Shown one piece after another: positions 7,782 through 48,939 of a stretch of DNA of 64,000 nucleotides (positions are counted from its first letter, which is position 1; the number at the start of each line of letters is the position of its first letter). A program made the translations under genes and the position numbers. Origin of the DNA: an uncultured Phycisphaerae bacterium (GTDB lineage: Bacteria; Planctomycetota; Phycisphaerae; JAAYCJ01). Below the pieces are notes generated by a model. The model searched no databases. It saw only the letters and a list, made by a program, of their open reading frames with translations, and had not been told where the DNA came from. The stretch lies in assembly GCA_964563935.1 (NCBI GenBank), contig CAZLZE010000004.1:6514-70513 (forward strand), in the 5' to 3' direction.

Positions 7782-7806
7782 GAGCGTGCTGTCTCCTGGA
7801 CAATCG

Positions 7807-9123: not shown

Positions 9124-9209
9124 GGTCTTCCTCTCTTATCTTGCCTTGATACTGTTATTGCACCGAGATCTGTCACATGACACGTCTCAACCGCATGGAT
9201 GGTTGCCTG

Positions 9210-10280: not shown

Positions 10281-10913
10281 TCATTCCATAATAACATAAA
10301 ACATTTCACAACTCAACATATTACATAAATACATTGATTGCCCACAACCACCTACAGCAAAATCTTTTATACCGTCTTATATTGTTTTATTTTGTTCTTT
10401 ATACAACCAGACTCCCTGGACTCGCACCGCCAGAGCGATTTGACGCCAACGAAGGAATTCAGCCAGGATTCCCCCTGGAAATGTACAAGCCCGAGGAAGG
10501 AATCGCTGGGAAATAGTTCCCATCGCGGAACTCTGCTACCGGGAAAATTCCCCAACTATCGTCCAACCTTATAACACAAACCGCATTCTTGACTCGACCA
10601 AGGCCTGTAACCCTTTGGCACAGCCGTTGCCAATACTCTTCATAAAGAACTTGGAAAAAATAACAGAAAAAGCAAAAAAGAGCCAAAGGCCCCAAAAAAT
10701 GAAGACGATGGAAAAAGGACCGATGAGAACAACGATATTGGTGAGCAACTATCCGAACTAGAACTCCTGGAATCGCCGGGATTATCCACCGATACATCGT
10801 GCCTTTCCGGAAAGGCTCAGTTGCCTGAAGGGAAAGAAGAGCCAAGAGAATCCCGCCGGTACTCCCCCGCCGGCGGGATTTTCGCATTTGCGGGTTCCCG
10901 CCGGAATTTTGGG

Positions 10914-10941
10914 TTGACAAGTCAGTGGGTTTCATTAAAAT
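10914..10941 (+). promoter_or_regulatory. candidate sigma70 promoter for the HEAT-repeat gene
   Basis: TTGACA (10914-10919), 16-nt spacer, TAAAAT (10936-10941), about 100 nt upstream of the start codon at 11045. Preceded by inverted repeat CCGGCGGGA...TCCCGCCGG (10868-10905). Confidence 0.4.
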
Positions 10942-11044
10942 TTGGGCATCGGTTTACGGCAATTTATTTTGCAAATTGTAGTTACGTAAGATCGGTCCGG
11001 CAATCGGAACCCCGCCCGAACCTGAGTGACTCTTACGGAGAACA

Positions 11045-29529: not shown

Positions 29530-29601
29530 GCCGATGTAGCTCAATGGCAGAGCACGGCTTTCGTAAAGCCGGGGTTGTGGGTTCAACTCCCACCATCGGC
29601 T
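29530..29601 (+). tRNA. tRNA-Thr (anticodon CGU)
   Basis: Cloverleaf folded by hand. Acceptor GCCGATG/CATCGGC. D-arm GCTC-AATGGCA-GAGC. Anticodon arm CGGCT-TTCGTAA-AGCCG (anticodon CGT). T-arm GTGGG-TTCAACT-CCCAC. CCA not encoded. Confidence 0.8.
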
Positions 29602-34313: not shown

Positions 34314-35147
34314 ATGTCTACAACAACGAGAGTACTTGTTTTGAGAAGGAACGACCCTGTGAGACGAGGCTGCTTGATCGACATGGATGGCGTGATGTAC
34401 CGGGGAAATGAACTCATTCCCAGTGCGGACATCTTTATAAACAAACTGATCCAATTGGACATTCCGTTCCTGTTTCTGACGAACAACAGTCAACGAACGC
34501 GACGCGACGTGGCCACACGACTCAACCGCATGGGAATCGCCGCGGAAGAACGACACATCTTCACCTGCGCCATGGCCACCGCAAGGTTCCTCGCCATGCA
34601 GAAACCCGGCGGAACAGCCTACGTCATCGGCGAGGGCGGATTGCTTAACGCCCTGTATCAAAACGGATACGCCGTCGTCGATCATGACCCGGACTACGTG
34701 GTCATCGGAGAAGGCAGGACCATGACGCTTGAGACGGTGGAAAAGGCAGTACGAATGATCCTCAACGGCGCCAAGCTCATCGCCACGAATCTCGACCCGA
34801 ATTGTCCGACCGCCGACGGACTGCGACCCGGATGCGGAGCCATCACCGCCATGCTCGAAACCGCCACCGGAACCAAGGCCTTCAGCGTCGGAAAACCCAG
34901 CCCCGTCATGATGAGAATGGCCAGAAAGGAAATCGGCCTGGATACTCAGGCCACCACCATGATCGGTGATACGATGGAAACCGACATTCTCGGCGGGGTC
35001 CAGATGGGATATCGCACGGTTCTGGTGCTCTCCGGCGGAACTCGCGAGGCGGATCTGGCAAAGTATGCATATCGGCCGGACTTGGTCGTGGCCTCCGTTG
35101 CCGACCTGTGTACCCCGGAATTCCTCTCGGGAGAACTGGCCGCATAA
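34314..35147 (+). CDS. HAD-superfamily hydrolase, subfamily IIA (NagD-like)
   Basis: 'LIDMDGVMYRG' motif I, 'FLTNNS' motif II, 'GKPSP...IGDTMETDILGG' motifs III/IV. 277 aa from the ATG at 34314. Confidence 0.75.
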   Translation: MSTTTRVLVLRRNDPVRRGCLIDMDGVMYRGNELIPSADIFINKLIQLDIPFLFLTNNSQRTRRDVATRLNRMGIAAEERHIFTCAMATARFLAMQKPGGTAYVIGEGGLLNALYQNGYAVVDHDPDYVVIGEGRTMTLETVEKAVRMILNGAKLIATNLDPNCPTADGLRPGCGAITAMLETATGTKAFSVGKPSPVMMRMARKEIGLDTQATTMIGDTMETDILGGVQMGYRTVLVLSGGTREADLAKYAYRPDLVVASVADLCTPEFLSGELAA

Positions 35148-35264
35148 TCGAACCTGCAACCAATACTACCGGACAATATTATGGAATGATCTCATAGAAT
35201 GACGCGACCGTAAGGGAGTCTGGAACCGTTCTCCCCCTTCACACCCCTCCCTGGCGTGTCTCGT

Positions 35265-36761
35265 TCAATCGGCAGGTACGCACCGCCCCGTCGACCACTT
35301 CCGCAGCGCGTCCACACGCTCCGCCATCGTCACCGAGAGTGGCGGCGACGACTGAATTGCCTGCAAAACATGCTCCGTCGTCAACTCCACCTTCGAACCA
35401 AAGACGTTATGAAGTGCCGATACGATCGCCGACTCGATTTCCGCCCCGCTGAACCCTTCCGACGCGTCGGCCAACGCGTTCAAGTCAAACTGCGAGGGAT
35501 TGCGACGGCGTTTCTTGAGGTGAATGGCAAAAATCTCCTTCCGAACGTCCCGAGAGGGAAGATCGACAAAAAAAATCTCGTCAAATCGACCCTTGCGAAG
35601 CAATTCCGGCGGCAAAGCCTCGATATCGTTCGCCGTCGCCACCAGAAACACATGTGCATTGTGTTCCTGCATCCACGTCAGCAGCATGCCGAACATGCGC
35701 TGCGACAATCCCCCGTCGCTGCTCCGGCTGGCGGCCGAGGCGAACCCCTTTTCGATCTCGTCAATCCATAGAACAATCGGCGCCATGCGCTCCGCCTGGC
35801 GAAACGCGTCCCGAAGCCGACGCTCGGATTCACCAATGTACCGATCGTACAACGCCCCAGGATCCATACGCAAAAGAGGCCGCTGCCACGCCGTCGCGAT
35901 CGCCTTCGCGCATAAACTCTTTCCCGCCCCCTGCACCCCCAGCATCAGCACACCACGCGGCGGAGCCAGCCCGAACGCCAATGCCTCATCCGTCGCCGCG
36001 TTCTGTCGCTGCTTAAGCCAGCCCTTGAGCCGGCGAAATCCGCCGATCTCCTCCAGGTCCACCGGCGTCTCGATGTATTCCAGCAGTCCGCCCCCGTGAA
36101 GCACTTGGCGCTTGCCCGCCAGAATCGCGTTGATGTCGCTGGCGTTGAAACTCAAATCCTCGGACACGGTATCGATAATGATCTGCTGCGCCTGACGCCG
36201 AGTCAGTCCCCGCAAATTACGTATGATCGTCTTCAACGCCGGCCGCGTGATGTCGATCTTGATCGGATTTTCCTTATGGATCACCCGAAGGCTGTCCAGT
36301 ACGATCATCTCCAATTCTTTTTCGTCCGGAAACGACAACTCAAATCTCGTCGCATACGAAGAAATCACCGCCGGCAGATCGTCACGGGGATCGATGATCA
36401 CCAGATGCCCGCCGCCCTGGCTGAACAAATCAATCAACTCGCGCAGTATCCGCAGCGTCCTTGGCTCCTTCAAATGCTCCACCAGATCCAACGCGACGCA
36501 GACCGACCCGTTCTCACGCACCCCGTAGTAATACAACGCCGCCGCCGGATGCTCCGTATCCGAAATCGGCATCCCGTCGTCACGATATCCGTCGCGAATC
36601 CCCCGATTCATCGACCACACCCAGAGCTTCTGCCCCGCCCGCTCCGACGCCCGCCGAACCAGGTTCAACGCATATTCCTCTTCAAACGTCGAAATGAAAA
36701 TGCACGTGTGGCGGGCCCGAAATAAATGTTCCAACCGCTCCAGGTCTGTCATGATCACCAT
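35265..36761 (-). CDS. classical-clade AAA ATPase with a degenerate N-terminal AAA-like domain
   Basis: Walker A 'GVQGAGKS', Walker B 'IVLWIDEIE', second region of homology 'ATANDIEALPPELLRKGRFDEIFFVDLP'. 498 aa. Confidence 0.7.
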   Translation of the reverse strand: MVIMTDLERLEHLFRARHTCIFISTFEEEYALNLVRRASERAGQKLWVWSMNRGIRDGYRDDGMPISDTEHPAAALYYYGVRENGSVCVALDLVEHLKEPRTLRILRELIDLFSQGGGHLVIIDPRDDLPAVISSYATRFELSFPDEKELEMIVLDSLRVIHKENPIKIDITRPALKTIIRNLRGLTRRQAQQIIIDTVSEDLSFNASDINAILAGKRQVLHGGGLLEYIETPVDLEEIGGFRRLKGWLKQRQNAATDEALAFGLAPPRGVLMLGVQGAGKSLCAKAIATAWQRPLLRMDPGALYDRYIGESERRLRDAFRQAERMAPIVLWIDEIEKGFASAASRSSDGGLSQRMFGMLLTWMQEHNAHVFLVATANDIEALPPELLRKGRFDEIFFVDLPSRDVRKEIFAIHLKKRRRNPSQFDLNALADASEGFSGAEIESAIVSALHNVFGSKVELTTEHVLQAIQSSPPLSVTMAERVDALRKWSTGRCVPAD

Positions 36762-36887
36762 CCCTGTAAAACAATCTTGACCGGAACCATTCTATCACGC
36801 ATCAACGCCCCCAGGCAAGTCCTGCAGTCCTGTAGAAGGGTTCACCAACCCATCGCTTCTTCTCTTTCTACATGCATCCGCGACTTC

Positions 36888-38015
36888 TCAACCCACCACT
36901 GCCTTCATCCAGCAATAAATCGCATCCCCGATCTGCCGGTAACCCTCGGCCGACGGGTGAACGCCATTATCAAGCCGCGCGCCCTCCTGCGACGTCCGCG
37001 AGTTCCACGGCTTCGTCGCCTGCGGATAATTGTGGACACAATCCACATTCGTACCCGCCGGAACAAGCCACAAATTCTCCTTCTCGCGCCCACCGTATCG
37101 CTCAGTCATAACCTCCACCACCCGATGCTGGTTCCGCTTGTATTGCCAGCGAGTCTGCAGGCATCCGTAGTTGGACCCAAACGCGTCCTGCGATGCCGCC
37201 GGCGGCGGGGGAAGAACCGCCCCAATCTTGATTTTCCGACTAAAGCCATGGATCATCGCGAGCAGTTGATCGTAATACCGCATCATCCGCTCGACGTGCT
37301 GCGGCAAATTCTCTTCCGTGGCGTGAAAAATATCATTCGCCCCGAGAAAAATCGTCACCACGTCCGGCGCCTTGCCGTCGTTCGTCTCCCGAATGTACCG
37401 GGCGAAATCAAGCTGCGGCTTGCCGTCCGCCCCTTCATACAGAAATGGACTGCCGCACTCCCGATAGTTGCTCGTCCGAGCCACGCCCGTATACGCGGTG
37501 ACAAACGCCTCCGCCGTCCACCCGCCGTACCCCTCGTGCCGATTCTCCGGCGGCATCTTCAAGTCCGTCGAAACATGCGTTCCGATGAGTCTAAGCCGCG
37601 GCTGGCCCACCGACCCGCAAAGCTCAAGCAGATGGCCCGTGTATACCGACTGATACGTCAGACTGTCCCCAATGCACAGCATCGCGATGGATCTGCCCGC
37701 CCCCGCCTCAGCCGAAACGACACGCACCGTCGAACTCCCCCGCGCAATGACCGCATTATCCTCGTCAATCACCTCCAGCACCAGCACATGCTCCCCCACA
37801 TCCTCAGCCAACGGCACAAAAGTCCACCGTTCCGCCTGCAATCTCCCCTTGGCGCATGATACGCGAAACACATAATTCGCCGGATTCACCACCAGCACAA
37901 CGTTGTCAAAATAAACGTTCGTCTCAATCCCCGATACCGCGTAAATCACCTTCGGCAGCACCAGCCGGACCGGACCCAAAACATCAGGCTCGTTATGATT
38001 CGCCTTCCTGCTCAT
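36888..38015 (-). CDS. SGNH/GDSL-family hydrolase with an N-terminal beta-sandwich domain (cytoplasmic)
   Basis: 'LCIGDSLT' block I and 'DGVHPSAEGY' block V. Start at the internal ATG at 38015, preceded by GGAGGAA. No signal peptide. Confidence 0.65.
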   Translation of the reverse strand: MSRKANHNEPDVLGPVRLVLPKVIYAVSGIETNVYFDNVVLVVNPANYVFRVSCAKGRLQAERWTFVPLAEDVGEHVLVLEVIDEDNAVIARGSSTVRVVSAEAGAGRSIAMLCIGDSLTYQSVYTGHLLELCGSVGQPRLRLIGTHVSTDLKMPPENRHEGYGGWTAEAFVTAYTGVARTSNYRECGSPFLYEGADGKPQLDFARYIRETNDGKAPDVVTIFLGANDIFHATEENLPQHVERMMRYYDQLLAMIHGFSRKIKIGAVLPPPPAASQDAFGSNYGCLQTRWQYKRNQHRVVEVMTERYGGREKENLWLVPAGTNVDCVHNYPQATKPWNSRTSQEGARLDNGVHPSAEGYRQIGDAIYCWMKAVVG

Positions 38016-38088
38016 GGGCTGTTCCTCCACTTGATCAAACGGGAAATGATACCACCGACAGGATGTCCGCACAACGTATACACGGAAA

Positions 38089-39129
38089 TCAAAAACCATC
38101 CGGATAACATTCCGCCGGACCGAGCCATTTATGGCACTGGTTGGCATGATACAGCGTCCAGCGAAGATGATAGCAAAGCTGGCACTTGGAAATGTACCCC
38201 CGCGCCAACGGCTTAAAACCATATCGCGACGCCAGTTCGATCAGCCCCACCGGCCCGTGCTCCACGAGCGTCGGAATCACCGGCCCGCTCGGACCACGGT
38301 CGTTCAACCAGTCATAAACGTCGCCGATTTGCTCACTGATCGCGTTGCCCAGAATGATCCCGCAACACGTTCCCGGAAAGATGTTGCCGTACGGGTCGAT
38401 GTGGACATGCTTGCTCTTCAGGATACCCTTCTGGCAGTTCTCGCCGACGAACGCCTCCGGCGGACTCCCGGAAACAAGCTTCGCCGCCAGCATGGCCGCC
38501 CGACCATTCAAACGCTCCCGCCCGTCCTTCAATGCATCGATCTGAATCTCCCGCCGCTGCTCTTCATCGAGATTCGAAATATCCAGATCGTTCTCGAGAA
38601 CGAAATTGTAAAAATCCCACCAGCGAACGCGGACACCCTCAGACCCGAGCACGTCCGGGCCGATATCCACCAACCGTTTGACGTTCGCAATCGGCACAAA
38701 CTCCTGATGAAACACATCGGCGTCGGTCGTGATAAGCTGCACGCCCAATTCCTTGAGCGAGGTCAGCCGTTCGCGAACGATCGTGTCGTCGGTCGCCCAG
38801 AAGGCATTCGTCTCGATCTTCTCCAACGACGGCAGCCCCGCCTCATTCGCCAGCCGAAGAACGCCAACCACAAGGGCCCAATTTCCAAACGCTTCCCCGC
38901 CCGTCAGGTGAATCTTCACATGACCGCACGTGCGACCCGCCAGCGCCTCCAACTGCTTCCACCAATCCACCACGCGCTCCGCCTCAGCCCAGAATTTATG
39001 CTCCGGACTGCAATTGACGTAACAAAATGCGCACCGGGCCGGACACCAGTAGCTCAGCATCAGACCGGCGTATTGCCAGGGCGACAAACGCCCCGCGGAT
39101 TCTCTTGTTGGTTTCTGAACCTTCGTCAT
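38089..39129 (-). CDS. radical SAM enzyme with a Cys-rich C-terminal region
   Basis: 'CPARCAFC' CxxxCxxC cluster near the N-terminus. C-terminal 'CQKG...GTCCGII...CQLCYH...CHKW' looks like an auxiliary cluster. 346 aa. Confidence 0.7.
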   Translation of the reverse strand: MTKVQKPTRESAGRLSPWQYAGLMLSYWCPARCAFCYVNCSPEHKFWAEAERVVDWWKQLEALAGRTCGHVKIHLTGGEAFGNWALVVGVLRLANEAGLPSLEKIETNAFWATDDTIVRERLTSLKELGVQLITTDADVFHQEFVPIANVKRLVDIGPDVLGSEGVRVRWWDFYNFVLENDLDISNLDEEQRREIQIDALKDGRERLNGRAAMLAAKLVSGSPPEAFVGENCQKGILKSKHVHIDPYGNIFPGTCCGIILGNAISEQIGDVYDWLNDRGPSGPVIPTLVEHGPVGLIELASRYGFKPLARGYISKCQLCYHLRWTLYHANQCHKWLGPAECYPDGF

Positions 39130-39175
39130 GTTACAATCAATTATTGAACAACGAATAAGGGAATCAAGGCTAAAG

Positions 39176-39937
39176 ATGGAACAATCGACGAATCAGAAAC
39201 TCCAGCGCTATGCACGCCAGATGATGCTGCCCCAGGTCGGTCAGGCAGGCCAGGAAAAGCTGCTGCGATCGAAGGTGGCGGTCATCGGCTGTGGCGGCCT
39301 CGGCTGTACGATTACCCAGATCCTCGCCCGCGCAGGGATCGGCGAAATCACGATCTGCGACCACGACACGGTCGACCTGGAGAACCTGCACCGTCAGATT
39401 CTGTACGAAGAAAAGGATATCGGTAAGCTCAAGGCGGTGGCGGCAGGGGCGAAATTGCTGATGTTCAATTCGAACACAAAATTACACGTTTTCACATCGA
39501 AAGTTGACGGCACCAATGTTTCTGAACTCATAACCAACACGGATTTGGTGGTTGATGCGACGGATAATCTCGCCAGCCGGTACATGTTGAACTCGGCCGC
39601 GGTTCGTCTGGGTCGCGACTGGATCTACGGCGGATGCGTGGAGACCCAGGGAACGGTCATGGTTGTTCGGACCCGAACCGGCGCGTGCCTGGAATGCCTG
39701 TTCGGACCTTTTGACCCCGAAGAACAGGGCAAGAGCGGACGATTCCCAATCCTGCCGACGACGGCCGTCACGGTCGGCGCCATCCAGGCCCACGAAGTCA
39801 TCCGGTACCTGCTGACAAAAGGCGAGGATAACTCTTGCGGCAGCAAGATCATTTGCATAGATTTGTGGCAAACGCGGGTCCGGTCGAACGAAGCGGCCGG
39901 CAAAAACCCCAACTGCGGGACCTGCGGCAACATCTAG
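39176..39937 (+). CDS. ThiF/MoeB/HesA-family E1-like adenylyltransferase
   Basis: 'VAVIGCGGLGCTITQILARAGIG' nucleotide-binding loop, 'CLEC' zinc motif, C-terminal 'CGTCG'. About 253 aa from the ATG at 39176. Confidence 0.7.
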   Translation: MEQSTNQKLQRYARQMMLPQVGQAGQEKLLRSKVAVIGCGGLGCTITQILARAGIGEITICDHDTVDLENLHRQILYEEKDIGKLKAVAAGAKLLMFNSNTKLHVFTSKVDGTNVSELITNTDLVVDATDNLASRYMLNSAAVRLGRDWIYGGCVETQGTVMVVRTRTGACLECLFGPFDPEEQGKSGRFPILPTTAVTVGAIQAHEVIRYLLTKGEDNSCGSKIICIDLWQTRVRSNEAAGKNPNCGTCGNI

Positions 39938-39947
39938 ATAGAGAATC

Positions 39948-41057
39948 ATGGCGAAACGAAAAATATTACATATTGCGGGCGCCGAAGCCTCCGGGTGGCT
40001 GATCGGACAACTAGCGGCACAGTATCGCCTGCTTCCGGATGAGTTGTTCGAGCAAACGATCGCCGCCGGCGAGGACCGCGTGGCCCGAATGATCGAGGAC
40101 CAGGTACTGCACCCGGCGGTTCGACTCCACCGGCGAATGCGGATCGAATACTCCGCCGCCCGAAACCTGGCAAGATTTCTCCGGCAGCACAATCCGGATC
40201 TCGTCGTCTGCTGGGATATTCAGGCGACGGAACAACTGAAGCTCGCCATGCGGGGAAGCCGACGACCTGCCCCCGCAGTCGCCATGCTGTTCAGTCCGAG
40301 CACAAACGAGGAACTGCTCTTCAAGCTCAAATCGAATTTCCACCACGTGGGCCTGCATCTGGTCTGCGGGTCCGAACGCCTCGCCCAGTGGGCAAGGCAG
40401 GAACTATCGATTCACCAGCGTCTGCACTGCGTCTACCCAGCCTTTGAGAAATCGGCAGAAAATCTGAGCAAAGACGCGATCCGTCTGCGTTTGGGGCTCA
40501 AACCCGAAGACGTCGTCGTGTTCGTCCCCACCGAAGGAAAAAACGAGGACATCCACCAGGCATTCATCGGCTGTGGAATTCTGGAGCGTATCAATCACAA
40601 GGTGCGGATCGTCATCGCGGAACACGATCCCGAACGGCTTTGGAATTTCCAGCGATTCATCGAGCAAACGATCGTACCCCGCATTCTTCATGTGGTCGAT
40701 CCGTCGAACATCCGCCTGGCGGTAGCGGCGGCCGATGCGGTCGTTCAGCCGATGACGTGCGTCACCGAGACCCTGGTCCTGCTGGAAGCACTCGGTCGCT
40801 GCGTTCCCGTGGTAACCAATTCCTGGGCAGAACCGGCGGAGCTTTTGAGACCTGGCGAAACCTTCTGGAATCTGGACAAGACCAATGGTCGGGCCATTGC
40901 CGGAGGACTCAACCACGTGCTGACCGACTCGGACCTTCGTTCGCGTCTGACAGCCGATGCTCGCGAGAGCGTCCAGCAAAAATGCTCGGAGGGCGAATAT
41001 CGGGCTCGCATCGTCAAACTGTATCAGCAATTGCTCACTCCACAGCTTGAGGCATAA
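39948..41057 (+). CDS. GT-B fold glycosyltransferase (GT4-like)
   Basis: 369 aa. The C-terminal half has the GT4-like 'E...E' region ('VQPMTCVTETLVLLEALGRCVPVVTN'). Confidence 0.6.
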   Translation: MAKRKILHIAGAEASGWLIGQLAAQYRLLPDELFEQTIAAGEDRVARMIEDQVLHPAVRLHRRMRIEYSAARNLARFLRQHNPDLVVCWDIQATEQLKLAMRGSRRPAPAVAMLFSPSTNEELLFKLKSNFHHVGLHLVCGSERLAQWARQELSIHQRLHCVYPAFEKSAENLSKDAIRLRLGLKPEDVVVFVPTEGKNEDIHQAFIGCGILERINHKVRIVIAEHDPERLWNFQRFIEQTIVPRILHVVDPSNIRLAVAAADAVVQPMTCVTETLVLLEALGRCVPVVTNSWAEPAELLRPGETFWNLDKTNGRAIAGGLNHVLTDSDLRSRLTADARESVQQKCSEGEYRARIVKLYQQLLTPQLEA

Positions 41058-41065
41058 AGAGTCAT

Positions 41066-42955
41066 ATGAAGATTTTCGATCTGCTTGAATCCTACAAAGT
41101 CGTCATCGGTGACGGCGCCCTGGGCACGCAGCTTCAGCAGGTGTCGCAGACGCCGGTGGAACTGCCGGAAACTTTCTGTCTTGACCCCGGCGGCCAGGAA
41201 TTGATCAAGCAGGTCCACCTGTCGTACATAGAAGCAGGCTCGCAGATCCTCGAGACCAACACCTTCGCCGCCAATCCGTGGCGACTGGCCCAGATCGGCC
41301 TGGCCGAACAGTGCGAGCCGATCAACCGGATCGCCGTTGAACTGGCCAAATCCGTGGCGGGAATCAAGGCCGCCGTGGTCGGATCCGTCGGACCCCTGGA
41401 CCTCGGATTGGGCGTCAAAGACTTCAGCGAATATCAACTGCGCGAGTACTATCACGCACAGGTCGAGACGCTGGCCCAAGCCGGCGTTGACGGCTTTTTC
41501 CTCGAAACGTTTTCCTCCGTCGACGAAGCCCGCGGCGCCCTGCTGGAAGTTCGGGAGACGGGCTTGCCCATCCTCTTTTCCCTCGGCGGATTGGCCCTTT
41601 GTCAACCCTACGCGCGGCGAACGGTACTGGACCTGATCGAATTGGCCGAACAGATGGGCGTGCAAGCCCTGGGCATCAACTGCGTCTCACCGTATGACTT
41701 GAGCCAACTCCTGCCCGTACTGGCCGAACGAACCAAACTGCCCCTGATGGCCTATCCCAACGCGGGAACACCGACCGTGCAGCGTGGAGTGGTCCGATAC
41801 GACCTGCCGACCGCCATTCTGCTCTCCGAGGCGCGGACCTGGTACCAAGCCGGCGTAAAAATCATCGGCGGATGCTGCGGAACGGCCCCGGAACACATCA
41901 AGGCGCTCCAGAGAGAGTTTGGCGAACTCTCCGTCAAAAGCCGAACGGGGCGATTCACCATCGACATGCCCGCAGAGAAGACCGTTGCACGAACGGAGAA
42001 TCTGGGGGCCATTCCGCAGGAACAAAACCCCCTCCGTCGTGTCCTCCGCGACGCCCCTCGGCCGCTGGTGGCCGTGGAAATCCGCGCGAGCCTCAATAGA
42101 CCGCTGGCCGAGACGATCCAGGCCGCGAAAGTCGTCGCCGACGCCAGGCCGGACTTCTTCGACGTGCCCGACAATCCCGGAGCCAACCCCGGGCGCGATT
42201 GCGTCGCCTGCGCCTTTCTTCTCCAGCAGCAATACGAAATTCCGACGATCATCCACAAATCCGCCACGCAAACCAACGCCCTGCACCTGCATTCGTATCT
42301 GCTCGGCGCCGCCGATCTCGGCGTCCGCGGCGTACTCGCGGTCACCGGCGACCCGCCCCACGTCGGCCCCTTCGACCGCTGGGCTTCACGGGTAAACGAC
42401 ATCAAAAGCTCGGTGGAACTGTTGCGTCTGATGACGCTGATGCGATCGGGCGAACTCCTGAGCGGTCAGCCGTTGCCGGAACCGGTGGACTTCCTCGCCG
42501 GGTGCGCCTATGCCCCGACGCTGAATCTCTCAAGCCAGACCCAGTGGCTCAAACGCAAGGTCCAGGCAGGCGCCGAATTCGTCTTCACTCAGCCGATCTA
42601 TCTCTACGAGGATTTCGACAAGATCCAAAAGGCCACGCTCGATATTCACATCCCCATGTTCATCGGAATCCTGCCCCTGACCTCAGCCCGACAGATCGCG
42701 TACCTTCGCTCAGGAAAAATCCCCGGCATCCAGGTCCCCGATCAGGCAGCCCAGTTCATTCTCCGCTACAACGACGCCGAATCGCAGGCCAAAGCCGGCA
42801 TGGAATACGCCGAACGCCTCATCGTCGAACTCGCCGAGCGGGCCTTCGGATTCTACCTCGTCATGCCCTTCCACAAAAACTGCTTCGAACTGTCCGCCGG
42901 ACTCGTCAAACGCATCGCGACCTTCAAAAAGAAAAAAACGTCGGGCGATAATTGA
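41066..42955 (+). CDS. yitJ: bifunctional homocysteine S-methyltransferase / 5,10-methylenetetrahydrofolate reductase (YitJ-type)
   Basis: N-terminal Hcy-binding domain with 'IIGGCCGT' zinc site. C-terminal MTHFR-like domain. 629 aa. Confidence 0.75.
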   Translation: MKIFDLLESYKVVIGDGALGTQLQQVSQTPVELPETFCLDPGGQELIKQVHLSYIEAGSQILETNTFAANPWRLAQIGLAEQCEPINRIAVELAKSVAGIKAAVVGSVGPLDLGLGVKDFSEYQLREYYHAQVETLAQAGVDGFFLETFSSVDEARGALLEVRETGLPILFSLGGLALCQPYARRTVLDLIELAEQMGVQALGINCVSPYDLSQLLPVLAERTKLPLMAYPNAGTPTVQRGVVRYDLPTAILLSEARTWYQAGVKIIGGCCGTAPEHIKALQREFGELSVKSRTGRFTIDMPAEKTVARTENLGAIPQEQNPLRRVLRDAPRPLVAVEIRASLNRPLAETIQAAKVVADARPDFFDVPDNPGANPGRDCVACAFLLQQQYEIPTIIHKSATQTNALHLHSYLLGAADLGVRGVLAVTGDPPHVGPFDRWASRVNDIKSSVELLRLMTLMRSGELLSGQPLPEPVDFLAGCAYAPTLNLSSQTQWLKRKVQAGAEFVFTQPIYLYEDFDKIQKATLDIHIPMFIGILPLTSARQIAYLRSGKIPGIQVPDQAAQFILRYNDAESQAKAGMEYAERLIVELAERAFGFYLVMPFHKNCFELSAGLVKRIATFKKKKTSGDN

Positions 42956-43106: not shown

Positions 43107-44159
43107 ATGACTGTAAGCACCAATAATACATCCATTTACACACTCAGCAAAGAGCTGGGCATATCGACGGCAACCGTGTCCCGTGCCCTCAAGAACCACC
43201 CAGCCATCAGCGCCGCTGTACGCAAAAAGGTCCAGGCCGCCGCACGCAAATGCAACTACCGGCCGAAGTTCGTCCGCACGCGAATCACTAATCTGTGCGT
43301 CCTGATCCAGCAATACGACGAGCATCCCCTGGACTTCGGGTCCTTCATCTCGCGCGTCCTCGAGGGCGTCGCCGAGTATTGCCGCCAGGAAGAACTGGAA
43401 ATGAGCCTCTTCAGCGCACACGTTCGCGAACTCAATCAGTACGACATCGTTCGAGAACTCCGCCGACGAAACGCGGACGGCGCTGTAGTCCTCCGGGCAA
43501 CCAGCCAGAGCCGATACCTGCCCCAAATGGACGCCCAGGAATTCCCCTACTTCTGCCTGCTCGCCAACGACGGAAACGCGTCCGAAAAACTGCTGTCGAT
43601 CGATGAAGAAAAACTGGCGCATGAGGCGGTAAGTCATCTGGTCGAACTGGGACATCGTCGGATCGGAGCCTTGGTGACCTCGCCGATGACCACTGCCGGC
43701 CAGTTGCGCCTGAAGGGATACCGGCGAGCACTGAAAGAGCACAAGATCGAACCGATAGAGTCACTGGTCTTCACGGCCGACGCCAAGATTCACTGTGGCG
43801 GACTGCCGTTCGGAGTGTTGGGAATTGACGCGCTGCTGTCCCGCGAACCGAACCTGACAGCTGTGTTCACCACATGCGAGGAAAGCGCACGCGGAGCGAT
43901 CTTCCGATTGAATGAGCGAGGAATCGCCGTTCCGGACCGGATGTCCGTCGTCGGGTTCGACGATTTTCCAGGCACAGCCTACACTTGGCCGCCGCTGACC
44001 ACAGTTCGCATTCCGTACCTGGCCATCGGATACGAAGGGGCAAGGCAGGTCCACCGCCTGACCCGAGGACTGCCCGTGCTCATCGATGACGAGGTCAAAC
44101 GCAAAACAGCCGGTGAATTGGTGATCCGGGGAACAACGGGAAGAATTGCTGATTGCTGA
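43107..44159 (+). CDS. LacI-family transcriptional regulator
   Basis: N-terminal HTH 'IYTLSKELGISTATVSRALKN' and a PBP type-1 sugar-binding core. 350 aa. Confidence 0.8.
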   Translation: MTVSTNNTSIYTLSKELGISTATVSRALKNHPAISAAVRKKVQAAARKCNYRPKFVRTRITNLCVLIQQYDEHPLDFGSFISRVLEGVAEYCRQEELEMSLFSAHVRELNQYDIVRELRRRNADGAVVLRATSQSRYLPQMDAQEFPYFCLLANDGNASEKLLSIDEEKLAHEAVSHLVELGHRRIGALVTSPMTTAGQLRLKGYRRALKEHKIEPIESLVFTADAKIHCGGLPFGVLGIDALLSREPNLTAVFTTCEESARGAIFRLNERGIAVPDRMSVVGFDDFPGTAYTWPPLTTVRIPYLAIGYEGARQVHRLTRGLPVLIDDEVKRKTAGELVIRGTTGRIADC

Positions 44160-44183
44160 TTGCTGATTGTTAATTGCTAATTG
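44145..44183 (+). repeat. tandem heptamer repeat (ATTGCTG x3, ATTGTTA, ATTGCTA, ATTG)
   Basis: Counted directly. Overlaps the last codons and stop of the LacI-family gene. Confidence 0.8.
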
Positions 44184-44195
44184 AAGGAGAAGAAT

Positions 44196-44921
44196 ATGAA
44201 GAAACTGTCCAACCGGCAAAGCTCCGCCAATCAACAATTAACAATCAGCAATCAACAATCGTTCACCCTCATCGAACTCCTCGTCGTTATCGCCATCATC
44301 GCCGTACTCGTAGCCCTGCTCCTGCCGGCGCTCCAGCGGGCACGCGATGAAGCGAAGACTTTACGCTGCAAGAGCCAATTGCGGCAGTTGGGTACCGCGA
44401 TGGTGATCTACCAGAATGACTTCAAATATCTCCCCTACTATTTCGGGGCCCTGAAGGCAGACTTGACCGTTGACCCGACAAAATGGGCGCACCGGTACAT
44501 TGCAGACCCGCGACTGGTCGTCTGCCCGGGCGACCCGTGGGGCGGATCAGAACCGTACCAGGGACCAGGTTTCACGGACCCGAAATATAACTACCTTGAA
44601 CAGCGATGGTATTGGACCCCACCGTGCTCGTATTGGAGCCCGTTGAATCATTACATGGCTTGGCTGGGAAGCAAGGCGTTCGCCGACAGGTTCATGATCG
44701 AGTACAGCGGGGGTTTTGTCAGGCCCGAAGACAGATTGGACCCGGGACAGGACTACATGGGACAAGACTGCACATACATTCGGTGCATGAACGACGGCTA
44801 TGTTCGGCATCCGGGTCGTACGTCCATTCATCTGTCACCCTCGGGTCGCGTGACAGATTTCCGCTCGTCAGCTTCGAATCCCTGGGAATGGCCTGGGTGG
44901 TATCGAATGGATCGATATTAA
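44196..44921 (+). CDS. prepilin-type N-terminal cleavage/methylation-domain protein (DUF1559-like)
   Basis: '[28 protein letters not shown]' class-III signal with an unusual 22-aa leader ending NQQS. Start at the ATG at 44196, with GAAGGAGAAG upstream. Confidence 0.7.
44228..44261 (+). repeat. tandem heptamer repeat (CAATCAA-type), inverse complement of the upstream repeat
   Basis: The reverse complement matches 44151-44183 at about 31/34 positions. It lies within the codons for the prepilin leader. Confidence 0.75.
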
Positions 44922-45074
44922 AAGATCCTGTAGGACTACCCGAACGTCATCCTGAGCAAAGCGAAGGATCTGGAGTCTACCGCGCAGTGGATTGTCCATG
45001 CACACAGGCGGCTAGATGCTTCGCTTCACTCAGCATGACATTGGAAACACAACGTAACCAGAAAGGAAAATCAC

Positions 45075-46910
45075 ATGCGTTTCATCAGCGTCATCAGCCT
45101 GACATTGTTGATATCGAGCGTCAGTCTTGCGACGAACCTAATACCCAATCAAAGCGAATTCTCCATCGAACAGAAAGACCAAAAAGGCGAGGCTGGTAAA
45201 TGGTTCGACAAGGTCAAAGTCCCAGCCGGGACAAAAACCTTGTACTGCTCTGCCTGGGTCAAAACGCAGAACGTCACCGGCGACGACGGATCCCTGCACC
45301 TGTGGCTGACCGTGTTCGACAAGTCAGGCAAGGAAATCACCAAGACGGCGTGGGAAAAAATCAAGGATACCCCCGCCGTATGGCGAAAAGTCCGGGCCGC
45401 GGTCGCCATTCCCGAAAACGCGGATTCCGCACAGATGGGATTCCAACTATACAAAGCTTCCGGGAAGACATGGGTAAAACACGTGGTCCTTGAAACCGAA
45501 GATTTCGGAACAGTGACCGCGCATTTCAAGAATAACCAACGGTTCTTTGATGCCGGCAAGACAATCGAGTTTGAACTCCAGAGCACCCGGACAGGTTCGG
45601 TCCAGATTCTTGATTTCGACGAGAAGGTCGTACGGAACATCCCTCTGGAAAAGTCCAAGCGAACCGCGGTGAAGATCGAGAAAGCGGAATCGGGAGTCTA
45701 TTGGATCACCGACGGCGGCGTGTACATCGACAGCTTCGCCGTCCTGGTTCCAGTCAAGCCCCTGGCCAACCCCGAAGACAGCAAATTCGGTGTCCACTAT
45801 GCCTATATCGATCAAGACCCTGGATACCATGTCCCAAAACTCGACATTTTTCAGAAAATCGGCGCAGTATGGCTTCGATGCACCACGATGAGCCCTGAAT
45901 TGGACGCCGACCCGCAAAAACGCCTCTGGCCGGCGCGTGACCGCTTCATCGATGAGGCAACCCAAAGAGGATTGAACACGTATTCCTTCTTTGAATACAT
46001 CAACTTCCCCTATCCTCACCAGGGCCAGTGGAAGAACCCGAAAGTGTCGGCCTTAATGGAACGATACGTCATCCAACACCCAAATCTGAAGTACTTTGAA
46101 GTCTGGAACGAGCCGAATGGCAAGAACGTATCGATTGAGGAATATTTCAATCTGCACAAAAACTTCCACGCGGCGGTCAAGAAGGCCAATCCCAAGGCCG
46201 TCGTGGTTCACGGCGCCATGGCTGGCGCGGGTTTTTCCGGCCAGTGGGACTGCGAACTGGCCAACGTATGGCAAGACAAGCTCCTGAAAATGGGGATCGA
46301 CAAATACACCGACATCTACAACATTCACTTCTATCCCTACCAGTGGAATACCCGCGATTTTGTCGACAAGCATATGATGACGGTCTATCGAAAACACGGC
46401 GTTAAAAAACCAGTCTGGGTAACCGAAAACGGCATGGCGGCGGAAATGAACAACATAGCCCAACAGCGAGCCCAGGCTGAGTATCTGGCCCGAAGCGCCG
46501 TGACGTGTCTGGCGCTTGGCGTGGAAAAATACTTCTGGTTCCTCGCGTTCGACCATCCGGCATTCAGCTATGGATTGATCGACGAAGAACTTCGGCCCAA
46601 GGCGATATGCGTGACGTATGGCGTCATGTCGCAAATGCTGAACAACGCGCGGTTCGTCAAGAAACTGAACCTCGATTATCGCGGCGCGGAAGGATACGAG
46701 TTCTCCAGCCCGGGTCAGACCGTCACCGTGCTCTGGTCCAAAGGCAAGCCCACTCGCGCCGTCGCCAAGGAACTTCTTCCATCTCCATTCGTGGCCAGGA
46801 AATGGATGACGGTCGACCTGATGGGACGGGAACATCAAATCTCCTGGGAAGGAGAAGACATCCCCATTACCACCGCCCCCATTTTTCTCGTGTGCCGCAA
46901 AACAGAATGA
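45075..46910 (+). CDS. secreted clan GH-A glycoside hydrolase (GH39/GH5/GH1-like catalytic motifs) with an N-terminal beta-sandwich domain
   Basis: Signal peptide. 'FEVWNEPN' (acid/base) and 'VWVTENGM' (nucleophile). 611 aa. Confidence 0.6.
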   Translation: MRFISVISLTLLISSVSLATNLIPNQSEFSIEQKDQKGEAGKWFDKVKVPAGTKTLYCSAWVKTQNVTGDDGSLHLWLTVFDKSGKEITKTAWEKIKDTPAVWRKVRAAVAIPENADSAQMGFQLYKASGKTWVKHVVLETEDFGTVTAHFKNNQRFFDAGKTIEFELQSTRTGSVQILDFDEKVVRNIPLEKSKRTAVKIEKAESGVYWITDGGVYIDSFAVLVPVKPLANPEDSKFGVHYAYIDQDPGYHVPKLDIFQKIGAVWLRCTTMSPELDADPQKRLWPARDRFIDEATQRGLNTYSFFEYINFPYPHQGQWKNPKVSALMERYVIQHPNLKYFEVWNEPNGKNVSIEEYFNLHKNFHAAVKKANPKAVVVHGAMAGAGFSGQWDCELANVWQDKLLKMGIDKYTDIYNIHFYPYQWNTRDFVDKHMMTVYRKHGVKKPVWVTENGMAAEMNNIAQQRAQAEYLARSAVTCLALGVEKYFWFLAFDHPAFSYGLIDEELRPKAICVTYGVMSQMLNNARFVKKLNLDYRGAEGYEFSSPGQTVTVLWSKGKPTRAVAKELLPSPFVARKWMTVDLMGREHQISWEGEDIPITTAPIFLVCRKTE

Positions 46911-46998
46911 TGGAACTGGCGGGAAGATTTGGTAAAATCACTTCCTTTATTTTCAGGTGTTCTGGACATATAAGAACGAAACAGGCAGGTATGCGATA

Positions 46999-48939
46999 AT
47001 GTCGAAGACAATTCATGATTTGAACGGCGGCTGGGAATTCACGTGGACGAGTTACTGCGGTAAGGATCGCGGCATCCTGAGAGAGCAGGAAAATTGGGTG
47101 CGAAAGTGGCTCCCTGCCACGGTCCCTGGAAATGTGCAGTCGGACCTGGAAAAGGCCGGACTGGTCGAAGACCCCTTCTTCGCCGATAACGCCGACCATC
47201 TCCGCTGGTGCGAAGAGGTCGATTTCTGGTACCGGCGATCGATCGGACCGGTGGACGTCCCCCACGGAGCACGGGCCATTCTGCACTTCGACGGTCTGGA
47301 CTGCTTCGCGACCGTCTGGATCGACGGCCGGCCCGTCGGCAAGCACGACAATATGTTCGTCCCCTACTGGATCGACGTGACCGACCATATCCGCTCTGAT
47401 CGACCGGTGCAGATCATGATCCGCCTGGCGTCGGTGTCCCAGGAGACGGAAGTCTCCCACCGCGACCCGATCAGCACGCCGCCCATGCAGCGAATCCGCA
47501 GTCGCAAACCGCAAATCAGCTTCGGATGGGATATCGGTCCGCGAATCGTCACCGTCGGACTCTGGCGACCGGTTCGGCTGGAGATCATCGAACGCGGACG
47601 GATCCTCCACGCCGGGGCACGCACTGTAGATGTCGCAGGCAATACAGCCAAAATGGAAGTCGTCGCCACCATCGACTGGCACAGTCGCCCGGGAACAGGC
47701 AAAATCACAGGCCAATTCGGTCCCGTGAAGATCGAACAGACGGTGGACCTGACCGGCGGCGAAAACGACGTCATCATTCCGTTTGAAATTTCGAGTGCAG
47801 AACTCTGGTGGCCAAAAGGGCACGGCAAACCGCACCTGTACAACTTCGAGCTGACCCTCAGCGACGAAAAGTCCAAAGTCCTGGACCAGTCCACAGGCCG
47901 ATTCGGCGTCTGCAAAATCCAGATGCTCGAAGAACCCCGCACCGACGGCGGACTCGGACTCCGATTCAAGATCAACAACAAGGACTACTTCATCAAGGGA
48001 ATCAACTGGACGCCCTGCGATTCCATGTTCGGGCGCATCACCGACGACCGAATCCGCGAACTGGTCAAAACCGCCTCCGAAGCCAACATCAACATGCTCC
48101 GCGTCTGGGGCGGCGGCGTCTACGAACCCAAAAGCTTCTTTGACGCCTGCGACGAGCAAGGTCTGCTCGTCTGGCAGGACTTCCTCTTCGCCTGCTCACA
48201 CTTCCCGCAGGACAGCGAATTCCTGAACATGATCCGATACGAAGCCGCCAAGGTCGTCCGCGCCTTCCGCGGACACGTCTCGATGGCTGTCTGGTCGGGC
48301 GATAACGAAATCGACTTGTGCTGCGGAGCCGACGGGGGCGTGGTCATCTCCCGACGAGTCCTGCCCGAAGTCCTCAAGAAACTCGACCCCCATCGACCCT
48401 ACATCATCAGCAGCCCATATTCCACGCCCGGCAACGATCCCAACGATCCTCGCTATGGCGACTGTCACCTGTGGAACCATACCGTCCGCCCGGATGACCC
48501 GTTCTACACAAAATATTCAGCCAATATCGTCAGCGAAATCGGACGAATCTCTCTGCCAAGCCAGAAAACGATCGACTCCTTCATTCCCAAGGACAAGCAG
48601 TGGCCCGTACGCAATCCGCTCTGGTACTATCATTCGAGCGACACGAACCGCTGGGGCTGGTACCGAAATATCGACAGTGTCCTGGAGTGCGTGAAAAACA
48701 ACGGTTACCCCGAACCCAAGTCGCTGTCCGAGTTGATCGAAGTGACGCAGAAAATCCAGGCCGACGCCTGCCGATTCTGGATCGAGCATTACGGACAAGA
48801 CAAGCAGTGCTGGGGGCTGCTCCTGTGGAACCTCTGCGACTGCTGGCCTCAGGTCTCCGACGCCGTAATCAGCTACAACCTCGACAAAAAACCGGCGTAC
48901 TTCGCCATCAAAGACGCCTACGGGAAGCTCAATCGCTGA
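46999..48939 (+). CDS. glycoside hydrolase family 2 (beta-mannosidase-like)
   Basis: 'LNGGWEF' N-terminal sugar-binding domain. 'WSGDNEI' acid/base region. About 646 aa. Cytoplasmic. Confidence 0.7.
   Translation: MSKTIHDLNGGWEFTWTSYCGKDRGILREQENWVRKWLPATVPGNVQSDLEKAGLVEDPFFADNADHLRWCEEVDFWYRRSIGPVDVPHGARAILHFDGLDCFATVWIDGRPVGKHDNMFVPYWIDVTDHIRSDRPVQIMIRLASVSQETEVSHRDPISTPPMQRIRSRKPQISFGWDIGPRIVTVGLWRPVRLEIIERGRILHAGARTVDVAGNTAKMEVVATIDWHSRPGTGKITGQFGPVKIEQTVDLTGGENDVIIPFEISSAELWWPKGHGKPHLYNFELTLSDEKSKVLDQSTGRFGVCKIQMLEEPRTDGGLGLRFKINNKDYFIKGINWTPCDSMFGRITDDRIRELVKTASEANINMLRVWGGGVYEPKSFFDACDEQGLLVWQDFLFACSHFPQDSEFLNMIRYEAAKVVRAFRGHVSMAVWSGDNEIDLCCGADGGVVISRRVLPEVLKKLDPHRPYIISSPYSTPGNDPNDPRYGDCHLWNHTVRPDDPFYTKYSANIVSEIGRISLPSQKTIDSFIPKDKQWPVRNPLWYYHSSDTNRWGWYRNIDSVLECVKNNGYPEPKSLSELIEVTQKIQADACRFWIEHYGQDKQCWGLLLWNLCDCWPQVSDAVISYNLDKKPAYFAIKDAYGKLNR

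Follow-up and report, generated by a model that had tools for sequence, protein, structure and literature searches.

Is the group of genes surrounding a radical SAM (rSAM) enzyme gene in an uncultured Phycisphaerae bacterium a dedicated multi-gene system, or a gene order inherited within a lineage? Comparison with related loci revealed lineage-restricted synteny around this uncharacterised rSAM gene. The locus is therefore probably a patch of gene order inherited in one Phycisphaerae lineage and not a dedicated multi-gene system, and we infer that its genes are not functionally coupled.

Organization of the locus

The genes considered here lie within positions 34320–42955 of the window, i.e. 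the whole stretch of 64,000 nt that was analysed:

34320–35147, plus strand: HAD-IIA family hydrolase gene (TIGR01457, 237.4 against a cutoff of 247.65)
35265–36752, minus strand: AAA ATPase gene (495 aa; PF00004, 103 bits, residues 271–400)
36888–38015, minus strand: SGNH/GDSL hydrolase gene (375 aa; PF00657, 53.5 bits; PF13472, 45.8 bits; GDSLT motif)
38089–39129, minus strand: rSAM gene (346 aa; PF04055, 35.1 bits)
39176–39937, plus strand: MoeB/ThiF-type adenylyltransferase gene, hereafter ThiF (253 aa; PF00899, 233.9 bits, positions 1–237 of 238)
39948–41057, plus strand: GT4-type glycosyltransferase gene (369 aa; PF00534, 35.7 bits)
41066–42955, plus strand: YitJ-like gene (629 aa; PF02574, 205.5 bits, and PF02219, 91.3 bits)

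All six genes named in the initial annotation were recovered in place by Pfam matches, and the JGI gene calls for the same contig have lengths identical to those found here. The distances that it gave were also read from the sequence: 46 nt between the divergent rSAM and ThiF genes, 73 nt between the rSAM and SGNH genes (with GGAGGAA located 6 nt ahead of the SGNH ATG), and 10 nt between ThiF and GT4. The YitJ-like gene follows GT4 after 8 nt, and 135 nt separate the SGNH and AAA genes. The operon proposed for the minus-strand genes was an inference and was not confirmed. A promoter-like site lies inside the 135-nt gap, but sites of this kind show no enrichment versus shuffled sequence. Searches for a riboswitch and for a compositional anomaly found neither. 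The HAD-IIA hydrolase gene, which is convergent with the AAA gene, is absent from all related loci compared and is a bystander.

The rSAM enzyme

The rSAM protein contains the SAM-cluster motif CxxxCxxC (C29/C33/C36), and all 25 homologues compared (41–71% identity) retain its four C-terminal cysteines, C232, C255, C316 and C319, giving a family total of seven invariant cysteines. The motif and the Cys-rich C-terminus described previously are thus genuine. Homologue searches yielded 431 proteins in one case, at least 335 species genomes, nearly all of them Planctomycetota, in another, and 183 clusters at 50% identity (E≤1e-30) in a third. It is uncurated, uncharacterised and mostly planctomycetal. 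The HMM classification proposed in the initial annotation confirmed the radical SAM assignment (PF04055) and placed the enzyme outside the SPASM, MoaA and ThiH groups. No match to SPASM was obtained by HMM, and the NCBIfam scan gave four matches at E≤0.01, all to other families and none to an MnmL-type model; with the TIGR04078 (YydG) model, whose cutoff is 300, the score was 53.5 bits.

Among characterised proteins, its closest relative is the peptide epimerase EpeE/YydG of Bacillus subtilis (PDB 8AI1–8AI6; TIGR04078), which is the best match in both sequence and fold. With the AF2 model of rSAM (pLDDT 87.3), the best PDB matches in Foldseek were EpeE chains (E 3e-10, TM 0.58–0.62, 335 aligned columns), and the rSAM profile matched PDB EpeE with E 7e-13 over the N-terminal half, including the NxFW and D-x-x-H stretches. 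Like EpeE, rSAM has both CxxxCxxC and C-terminal cysteines, consistent with one auxiliary cluster. However, its identity to EpeE is only about 15%, its locus lacks an EpeX-like precursor, peptidase or ABC-transporter operon, and its family is spread over Planctomycetota in housekeeping-like, clade-specific contexts.

In EpeE, Cys223 is the H-donor residue. The single auxiliary [4Fe-4S] cluster of EpeE is housed by an extended twitch ('T-SPASM') domain (PMC13012085). The rSAM enzyme probably binds two [4Fe-4S] clusters: CxxxCxxC would carry the SAM cluster and the four invariant C-terminal cysteines an auxiliary one, the latter in an EpeE-like extended twitch-type domain. Its 5'-deoxyadenosyl radical would act on a substrate whose gene lies elsewhere in the genome, and not on a neighbouring precursor peptide. 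The earlier statement that no precursor peptide or ubiquitin-like carrier ORF is present was upheld: there are no credible small ORFs in the gaps of the window, no credible Gly-Gly-ending carrier ORF in the 64 kb (two ORFs of 50–130 aa ending in GG look spurious), and no MoaD or ThiS gene within the same 64 kb. Nor does a conserved small ORF flank the rSAM gene in any clade, the recurrent small ORFs being shadows of larger genes.

ThiF, GT4 and YitJ-like proteins

ThiF is a member of the ThiF family (PF00899), as expected from the initial annotation, and falls below every NCBIfam equivalog cutoff (207.6 versus 275 for ThiF; 199.6 versus 449 for MoeB), so that it may belong to the ThiF, the MoeB or another subfamily. 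Its alignment with E. coli MoeB (1JW9; E 4.5e-34) spans both proteins from one end to the other, and its reported 'zinc motifs', CLEC and CGTCG, do exist and represent the standard MoeB CxxC pairs (CLEC corresponds to CYRC, and CGTC to CEVC). It shares with E. coli MoeB/ThiF (PDB 1JW9, 1ZUD) a similar length (253 versus 249 aa), the GxGxxG nucleotide loop and both Zn-binding CxxC pairs; unlike these proteins, it has no MoaD or ThiS carrier nearby and, in the window's clade, forms an operon with GT4. It has no rhodanese domain.

The GT4 family is lineage-restricted and fast-evolving: only 16 relatives were found among 5.8 billion proteins, and a GT4-family HMM detected no member in 77 distant rSAM loci. 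GT4 faces the rSAM gene in every context examined. The YitJ-like protein, a bifunctional homocysteine S-methyltransferase/MTHFR of the methionine cycle, has both domains of YitJ (PRK08645) in the same order (the alignment covers 9–623, for a model of 611 positions), although its score of 431.6 (NF006396) is slightly under the curated cutoff of 453. Its gene follows GT4 only among the nearest relatives (L001, L002, L089, L092 and the P0249 contig).

SGNH hydrolase and AAA ATPase

The SGNH hydrolase has an N-terminal extension of ~110 aa; no signal peptide was seen on inspection by eye, and an NCBIfam scan gave no match. Outside the window, its gene adjoins the rSAM gene only in L083/L092 and the P0249 contig. 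As a core member of a system it was rejected, since just 3 of the 12 contexts in the clade contain it, with insertions on both sides: a toxin-antitoxin pair lies between the rSAM and SGNH genes in one SGNH-bearing relative, and three genes lie between SGNH and AAA in another.

The AAA ATPase had been described as a tandem-domain classical AAA protein. Instead, it has a single module, in which Walker A (G272) and Walker B occur once each: AAA modules in Pfam and PDB match only residues ~227–461, and comparison of the N-terminal 222 residues with the C-terminal module gives an hhalign probability of 0.9%. It is a single-module classical AAA+ ATPase of the SpoVK/Ycf46/Vps4 (COG0464) type, and close relatives carry the JGI label 'SpoVK/Ycf46/Vps4 family'. 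With the single-ring proteins of this type it shares one module comprising Walker A, Walker B and lid; it differs from them in its conserved non-AAA alpha/beta N-terminal domain (~220 aa), which has neither a Pfam match nor similarity to AAA profiles. The best structural matches of the module are FtsH-like, VAT and Cdc48 D2 modules; unlike Cdc48, the protein is not a tandem type-II AAA. Relatives over Planctomycetota are 63–79% identical along their full length, which fits an independent housekeeping role, and a copy 91% identical resides in an unrelated context in the same metagenome.

Gene neighbourhoods of the rSAM family

The window's clade (rSAM at least 60% identical) comprises 12 contexts from uncultured Phycisphaerae. 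In all 11 informative contexts the rSAM gene faces GT4. ThiF is the intervening gene in 11 of the 12, and one member without ThiF still has rSAM facing GT4. This facing order survives heavy rearrangement on both sides and holds at identities as low as 34% for GT4 and 60% for rSAM; the shared divergent region is 10–221 nt long, and ThiF and GT4 either overlap or are 10 nt apart. Co-regulation or a common pathway could account for the stability of this arrangement, together with the short divergent region. The nearest relatives have a common plus-side gene order (ThiF-GT4-YitJ-LacI-pseudopilin-GH-GH2), and because this synteny is long-range, their agreement is not independent evidence. The AAA gene occurs nearby in 7 of the 12 contexts, in five different arrangements: adjoining on the same strand (L002, L093), convergent (L003), or inverted with an MscS gene between (L084, L085), among others, and it is absent from L001. 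Of about 9 informative contexts, 7 have it no more than 7 kb away, which exceeds what random placement would yield.

The wider comparison covered 80 species-level loci with an rSAM homologue (38–47% identity), within a radius of 10 kb. In 77 of them tblastn detected no homologue of ThiF, AAA, GT4, SGNH or YitJ, and the conservation of the five-gene neighbourhood, which the initial annotation had put forward as its own check, thus fails there. The neighbours of rSAM are clade-specific, tracking the rSAM tree. In a deep clade (23 loci) mnmG is located directly upstream on the same strand (gaps of approximately −40 to +20 nt), in a block that also carries acpS and, from reading of the translation, a SurA-like gene; in 11–13 loci two GT2 genes, GT87 and a membrane protein gene flank rSAM, and in about six a 610-aa B12-binding rSAM enzyme is encoded upstream. 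Recurrence of the rSAM gene facing the ThiF-GT4 pair is confined to a single narrow lineage of uncultured Phycisphaerae.

Possible roles of the locus

It is possible, though unlikely, that rSAM, ThiF and GT4 constitute a lineage-specific module with a shared divergent promoter region, in which SGNH, AAA and YitJ are bystanders. ThiF would adenylate a carboxylate, either at the C-terminus of a protein or in a small molecule, GT4 would transfer a sugar, and rSAM would contribute a radical step such as an epimerisation or the formation of a C-C or C-S bond, yielding an envelope or secondary-metabolite compound. The facing order described above, kept while both flanks vary, the tight ThiF-GT4 spacing, a tiny GT4 family not seen apart from the rSAM gene, and glycosyltransferases flanking rSAM orthologues in another clade all argue for this. 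However, neither partner accompanies the rSAM orthologues at 77 other species loci, so the rSAM enzyme can do without them; one clade member has no ThiF, ThiF itself resembles an ordinary MoeB, and genes for an acceptor, carrier, transporter or precursor are absent. Moreover, one monophyletic clade supplies all of the evidence, and shared ancestry alone could explain it. A single new system of five genes (rSAM-SGNH-AAA plus ThiF-GT4), whether RiPP-like, sulfur-carrier or anti-phage with AAA as a motor, is very improbable. In its favour, the window has these genes close together and co-oriented, a RiPP epimerase is the nearest match to the rSAM fold, and PADLOC gives a weak IetA match for the AAA module (82.9 bits) and generic E1-E2 matches for ThiF. 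Against this, the uninterrupted set exists only in the window, as inserted genes break it in the two close relatives that carry it, the orientation of AAA flips among relatives, and this protein is conserved phylum-wide; the IteA model reaches 80 against a cutoff of 510, through the generic AAA module only, neither SGNH nor GT4 has a PADLOC match, and precursor and carrier ORFs are lacking. The neighbourhood data have already largely refuted a conserved five-gene system. The family assignments of the initial annotation stand, while its functional multi-gene set does not, given the 77 of 80 loci without these neighbours and the rarity of SGNH.

Two pathway assignments of the rSAM enzyme were also weighed. 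The mnmG linkage raises the prospect that its family acts in tRNA wobble-uridine (xnm5/s2U34) modification, with the mnmG and ThiF linkages both meaningful. In certain organisms s2U synthesis draws on E1-like enzymes, mnmG is directly upstream and co-oriented in 23 species genomes of a deep clade, and there is a precedent in MnmL/YhcC, an rSAM enzyme that is reported to replace MnmC in this pathway. We consider this improbable: MnmL-type models are missing from the four NCBIfam matches, the nearest fold is a peptide epimerase, the presence of acpS and the SurA-like gene makes the mnmG block look like a mixed housekeeping operon, and the two linkages occur in different clades, never together. 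Even harder to credit is a divergent pair of MoeB with MoaA (molybdenum cofactor) or ThiF with ThiH (thiamin). MoaA, a GTP cyclase, is a two-cluster rSAM enzyme as well, and ThiH is an rSAM tyrosine lyase; ThiF aligns with MoeB over its full length, and ThiE-like and ThiC-like genes (from reading of translations) lie 5–8 kb away in L001. Yet no MoaA or ThiH model matches rSAM at E≤0.01, its profile reaches PDB MoaA with E of about 0.2 in the N-terminal part only, the Foldseek TM is 0.31 to MoaA versus 0.58–0.62 to EpeE, and the 64 kb hold no MoaD or ThiS gene. The enzyme is none of the classical rSAM partners of an E1-like protein, such as MoaA or ThiH.

Inherited gene order remains our preferred reading, and since the recurring core is narrow and confined to one lineage, the locus appears mostly ordinary. 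The opposite strand would carry a ThiF-GT4(-YitJ) unit consisting of a canonical MoeB/ThiF adenylyltransferase, a lineage-specific GT4 and a methionine-cycle enzyme; the SGNH esterase is probably a recent local acquisition, and the highly conserved Ycf46/SpoVK-type AAA+ ATPase is probably nearby by chance in this clade.

Two different clades have glycosyltransferase genes beside rSAM (GT4 in this one, GT2/GT87 in the other), which could be a real functional theme.

Organization of the locus

The gene set surrounding the radical SAM gene does not amount to a system of a new kind. Each of its genes sits in a known superfamily, and the radical SAM protein (rSAM) belongs to a family that is functionally unknown and has no curated model. 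The locus is arranged as follows.

Genes of the locus (ORF listing and HMM scans)
35265-36752, minus strand: AAA ATPase (AAA), 495 aa
36888-38015, minus strand: SGNH/GDSL hydrolase (SGNH), 375 aa
38089-39129, minus strand: radical SAM protein (rSAM), 346 aa
39176-39937, plus strand: ThiF/MoeB-type enzyme (ThiF), 253 aa
39948-41057, plus strand: GT4 glycosyltransferase (GT4), 369 aa
41066-42955, plus strand: YitJ-like homocysteine methyltransferase/MTHFR (YitJ)

The ORF listing and the HMM scans agree on the genes and strands named in the initial annotation. The same contig is present in JGI metagenome 3300023207, where independent gene calls gave equal lengths. The gap of 46 nt between the divergent rSAM and ThiF genes, and that of 73 nt between rSAM and SGNH (with GGAGGAA ahead of the SGNH ATG), were likewise read in the raw sequence, in which the plus-strand gaps are 10 nt and 8 nt. 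GC content across the locus is unremarkable. A promoter and terminator scan gave counts no higher than in shuffled sequence, and therefore says little about operon structure; one promoter-like site is at 36818-36789, between SGNH and AAA. The SGNH assignment is based on PF00657 (53.5 bits, gathering score 23.6), and the nucleophile block GDSLT is legible in the translation. An Rfam scan of the window detected one tRNA (29530-29601, 70 bits), away from the locus, and no riboswitch or other RNA element.

A radical SAM family related to the peptide epimerase YydG

A word-seeded search retrieved 431 rSAM homologues, a cluster-level search gave 183 clusters at 50% identity (E<=1e-30), and relatives of the protein occur in 335 species-representative genomes. 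A literature search on this family in Planctomycetota found no relevant work. The initial annotation had left the choice between SPASM/twitch and another subfamily to HMM classification, which gave no SPASM or twitch match and, as the nearest family, YydG at a score below its cutoff. This best NCBIfam match (TIGR04078, the Bacillus subtilis radical SAM peptide epimerase EpeE/YydG) scored 53.5 bits, where the cutoff is 300, over residues 25-154 only; ten remote members of the rSAM family also matched YydG alone (33-63 bits). The family is a sister of YydG, and not YydG itself.

The cysteines of the CxxxCxxC motif (C29, C33 and C36) do not vary among 25 aligned members (41-71% identity), nor do C232, C255, C316 and C319. 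Enzymes with a SPASM domain have a seven-cysteine motif and two auxiliary clusters, whereas only four C-terminal cysteines are conserved in rSAM. This difference, together with the lack of a PF13186 match at E<=0.01, speaks against a SPASM-domain enzyme; a canonical twitch domain was likewise not detected by HMM. A profile search of the PDB found EpeE/YydG (E 7e-13, N-terminal half), and the AF2 model (pLDDT 87) gave a full-length Foldseek match to EpeE (E 3e-10, TM 0.58-0.62), with far lower scores for SkfB, CteB, viperins and MoaA. EpeE contains one auxiliary [4Fe-4S] cluster within an extended twitch (T-SPASM) domain (PMC13012085). The four invariant C-terminal cysteines and the full-length fold match are consistent with one such T-SPASM auxiliary cluster in rSAM, for which a two-cluster architecture like that of EpeE would naturally follow. 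Two cofactor enzymes were rejected as identities of the protein: MoaA (TIGR02666 unmatched, PDB profile E ~0.2 in the N-terminal part only, TM-score 0.31) and ThiH (no NCBIfam match at E<=0.01).

The gene context also separates the two families. The EpeE/YydG gene is accompanied by an adjacent gene for the EpeX/YydF precursor, a peptidase and an ABC transporter, whereas the rSAM locus contains neither a precursor gene nor a peptidase-transporter operon of this kind. The initial annotation had stated that the small gaps contain no precursor peptide or carrier ORF, which is borne out. The gaps of 46 and 73 nt are too short, so that there is no room for a precursor gene, and no plausible small ORF was found in the gaps of the window. 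No credible Gly-Gly-ending carrier ORF (MoaD/ThiS-like, 50-130 aa) was found in the 64-kb window. A search for conserved small ORFs up to 2.5 kb from 80 rSAM homologues yielded shadow ORFs of larger genes only; those recurring across the loci shadow either mnmG or rSAM itself.

The ThiF- and AAA-type neighbours

The ThiF protein is a typical member of its family, matching PF00899 with 233.9 bits over positions 1-237 of 238 and aligning end to end with Escherichia coli MoeB (1JW9), including both CxxC pairs and the nucleotide loop. The zinc motifs singled out in the initial annotation are present; since CLEC matches CYRC and CGTC matches CEVC of MoeB, they represent the family norm. HMM classification of this E1-like protein succeeded at the family level (PF00899) and gave no equivalog: the scores for ThiF, MoeB, MoeZ, TcdA and UbaA all lie under their cutoffs, the best being ThiF (207.6 vs 275.25) and MoeB (199.6 vs 449). 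A nearby ubiquitin-like carrier is common in the MoeB/ThiF family, although not obligatory.

The AAA protein had been described as a tandem-domain ATPase, a description that did not hold: it contains one Walker A motif, one Walker B motif and one PF00004 stretch. A type II tandem (Cdc48/p97-like) ATPase is rejected on this single AAA module and on the TIGR01243 score (128.8 vs 802.65), and hhalign gives a probability of 0.9% for similarity between the N-terminal and C-terminal parts. Residues 1-222 are strongly conserved in Planctomycetota and are confidently predicted (pLDDT 85-94) to form an alpha/beta domain and, after it, a helical bundle; they match no Pfam family, and profile comparison shows no similarity to AAA modules. 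The anti-phage ATPase IetAS/IteA was also rejected (NF042959, 80.2 vs 510), as the PADLOC IetA match covers only the generic AAA module, and the neighbouring genes match no protease family that could supply the IetAS partner. The AAA family is 63-79% identical phylum-wide, a conservation that fits an independent conserved role. A 91% identical copy from the same metagenome sits among unrelated genes on another contig (locus L082, 2363-6374), with two radical SAM genes of other kinds (Rv2578c-like, 319 aa, and an rSAM/SPASM protein, 359 aa) and a 58-aa ORF ahead of it and no ThiF, GT4 or window-type rSAM gene nearby.

Gene neighbourhoods across the rSAM family

We searched 80 species loci with 10-kb flanks (mostly from Planctomycetota MAGs, and three labelled Actinomycetes/Actinomycetota) using the neighbours of the window's rSAM. 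Only three loci, those closest to the window (rSAM 62-71% identical), had any such neighbour; the 77 distant loci (38-47%) contained no homologue of ThiF, AAA, GT4, SGNH, YitJ, HAD or LacI, and the GT4 HMM found no member in them. Clustering of all ORFs of the 80 loci showed that the neighbours are clade-specific.

Other arrangements recur elsewhere in the family. In 23 loci mnmG lies directly upstream of the rSAM orthologue and co-oriented with it, in many cases behind acpS and a SurA-like gene; the genomes are MAGs labelled Sedimentisphaerales, Pirellulales, Phycisphaerales and others (L052-L080). The two genes are separated by about -40 to +20 nt and their stop and start codons often overlap (for L079, mnmG is at 8114-9928 and the rSAM orthologue at 10001-10957). 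The pair resembles a deep operon with tightly packed genes. In another clade the rSAM orthologue has glycosylation genes on its flank: 11-13 loci (L007, L009, L015, L018, L023, L025, L028, L030, L043, L051 and L065 being of this type) carry two GT2 genes, a GT87 gene and a gene for an unknown 182-aa protein divergently upstream, with a membrane protein of ~700 aa encoded downstream. The gene for this multipass protein (e.g. L028, 11074-13191) sometimes overlaps the rSAM stop codon; Pfam gives no match for the protein, and NCBIfam only a weak, LIC_10190-like one. In about six loci, a 610-aa B12-binding radical SAM protein is encoded directly upstream, forming a co-oriented tandem pair with the rSAM orthologue (L026, 8130-9953; L040, 8142-9971; also L032, L034, L035 and L041); its NCBIfam matches, to B12-binding families, are weak (best HpnJ, 41 bits vs 577). 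In a neighbour-joining tree of rSAM proteins the clade of the window and the mnmG clade are each monophyletic, and the other two contexts are more scattered. Contexts thus largely track the clades of the tree, the pattern expected of inherited gene order.

Within the clade of the window (rSAM at least 60% identical), look-ups of AAA and GT4 homologues and a ThiF scan brought the number of distinct contexts to 12. The metagenome scan from the ThiF side found four loci, adding two contexts; three of the four belong to the same clade, so that no independent lineage was gained. The rSAM gene faces GT4 in all 11 contexts whose contig reaches that far, and ThiF lies between them in 11 of the 12, being missing in L086/L087, where GT4 identity is 34%. 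This arrangement is absent outside the monophyletic clade of the window, and shared ancestry could therefore account for it. YitJ follows GT4 in the nearest relatives only; these share at least eight syntenic plus-side genes with the window and are thus not independent observations.

The minus-strand side is less constant. SGNH is present in 3 of the 12 contexts. In one (the P0249 contig of a close relative, JGI 3300075153) a UPF0175/DUF3368 toxin-antitoxin-like pair (5141-5874) separates it from rSAM; in another, a sigma factor, a glycoside hydrolase and a phosphatase-family gene lie between SGNH and AAA. In L002 and L093 the AAA gene is adjacent and on the same strand; in L003 it is convergent, and in L084 and L085 it is inverted, with an MscS gene in front. 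L001 has no AAA gene within 10 kb. The five-gene neighbourhood put forward in the initial annotation is therefore not conserved: it is absent from all the distant loci, and in the clade itself SGNH is mostly missing and the placement of AAA varies.

Origin and possible role of the gene arrangement

Lineage-restricted synteny is probably the best explanation of the locus. On this reading rSAM, an uncharacterised and probably two-cluster enzyme, would act on a substrate encoded in another part of the genome. Its neighbours would be a MoeB-like gene of ordinary type, a GT4 private to the lineage and a methionine-cycle gene, together with a recently acquired esterase (SGNH) and an AAA+ ATPase that is conserved. 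The principal rival, that rSAM, ThiF and GT4 constitute a real lineage-specific module, appears rather unlikely to us: the trio persists despite heavy rearrangement of its flanks, and glycosyltransferases again adjoin rSAM orthologues in another clade, but the whole evidence is drawn from one clade. A bolder version also seems unlikely. In it, rSAM would represent a new functional class (EpeE-like, two-cluster, precursor-less and retained on the chromosome of many Planctomycetota) that here recruited the MoeB-like enzyme and the private GT4 into a three-enzyme module with an unknown modified product; such an enzyme might act as an epimerase or cross-linker on a cellular protein, an envelope glycoconjugate or tRNA.

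The mnmG linkage in other clades raises a role of rSAM in tRNA wobble-uridine modification, for which the radical SAM enzyme MnmL/YhcC offers a precedent; we regard this as a low-probability lead. A five-gene system is effectively excluded by the variable neighbourhoods, and a MoeB-MoaA or ThiF-ThiH cofactor pair by the rejection of both radical SAM identities. The same applies to a defence role, for which PADLOC gave generic matches only (the AAA module as IetA, and E1-E2 models).

Under the favoured reading, inherited synteny, the unfamiliar combination is mostly a chance product of gene order within a single lineage. It carries little weight as a system, and ought thus not to be listed among new pathways or defence systems. 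The useful pointer is the rSAM family itself, which hundreds of Planctomycetota species carry and for which no curated model exists. Among characterised enzymes a RiPP epimerase is the closest to it, yet a precursor peptide is absent nearby. The tight rSAM/ThiF-GT4 and mnmG-rSAM arrangements provide two concrete starting hypotheses, and the substrate, once found, would widen the range of twitch-type radical SAM enzymes as well as our view of the poorly known cell biology of Planctomycetota.

Other features of the flanking regions

A DUF6677 gene lies a few genes downstream of GT4 in three related loci (L084, 16673-17356; L085, 10566-10985; L092, 17989-18652), with a Zn_ribbon_8 gene ahead of it in L084 and L092. 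The inspected part of the window showed no DUF6677 gene. At 43107-48939 the window encodes a LacI-family regulator, a pseudopilin-like protein with an N-terminal methylation motif and glycoside hydrolases. Cassettes of this type recur in L092 (12125-17831) and L086 (214-4299), and a comparable regulator-plus-hydrolase block is found elsewhere in the window (~4692-10280).
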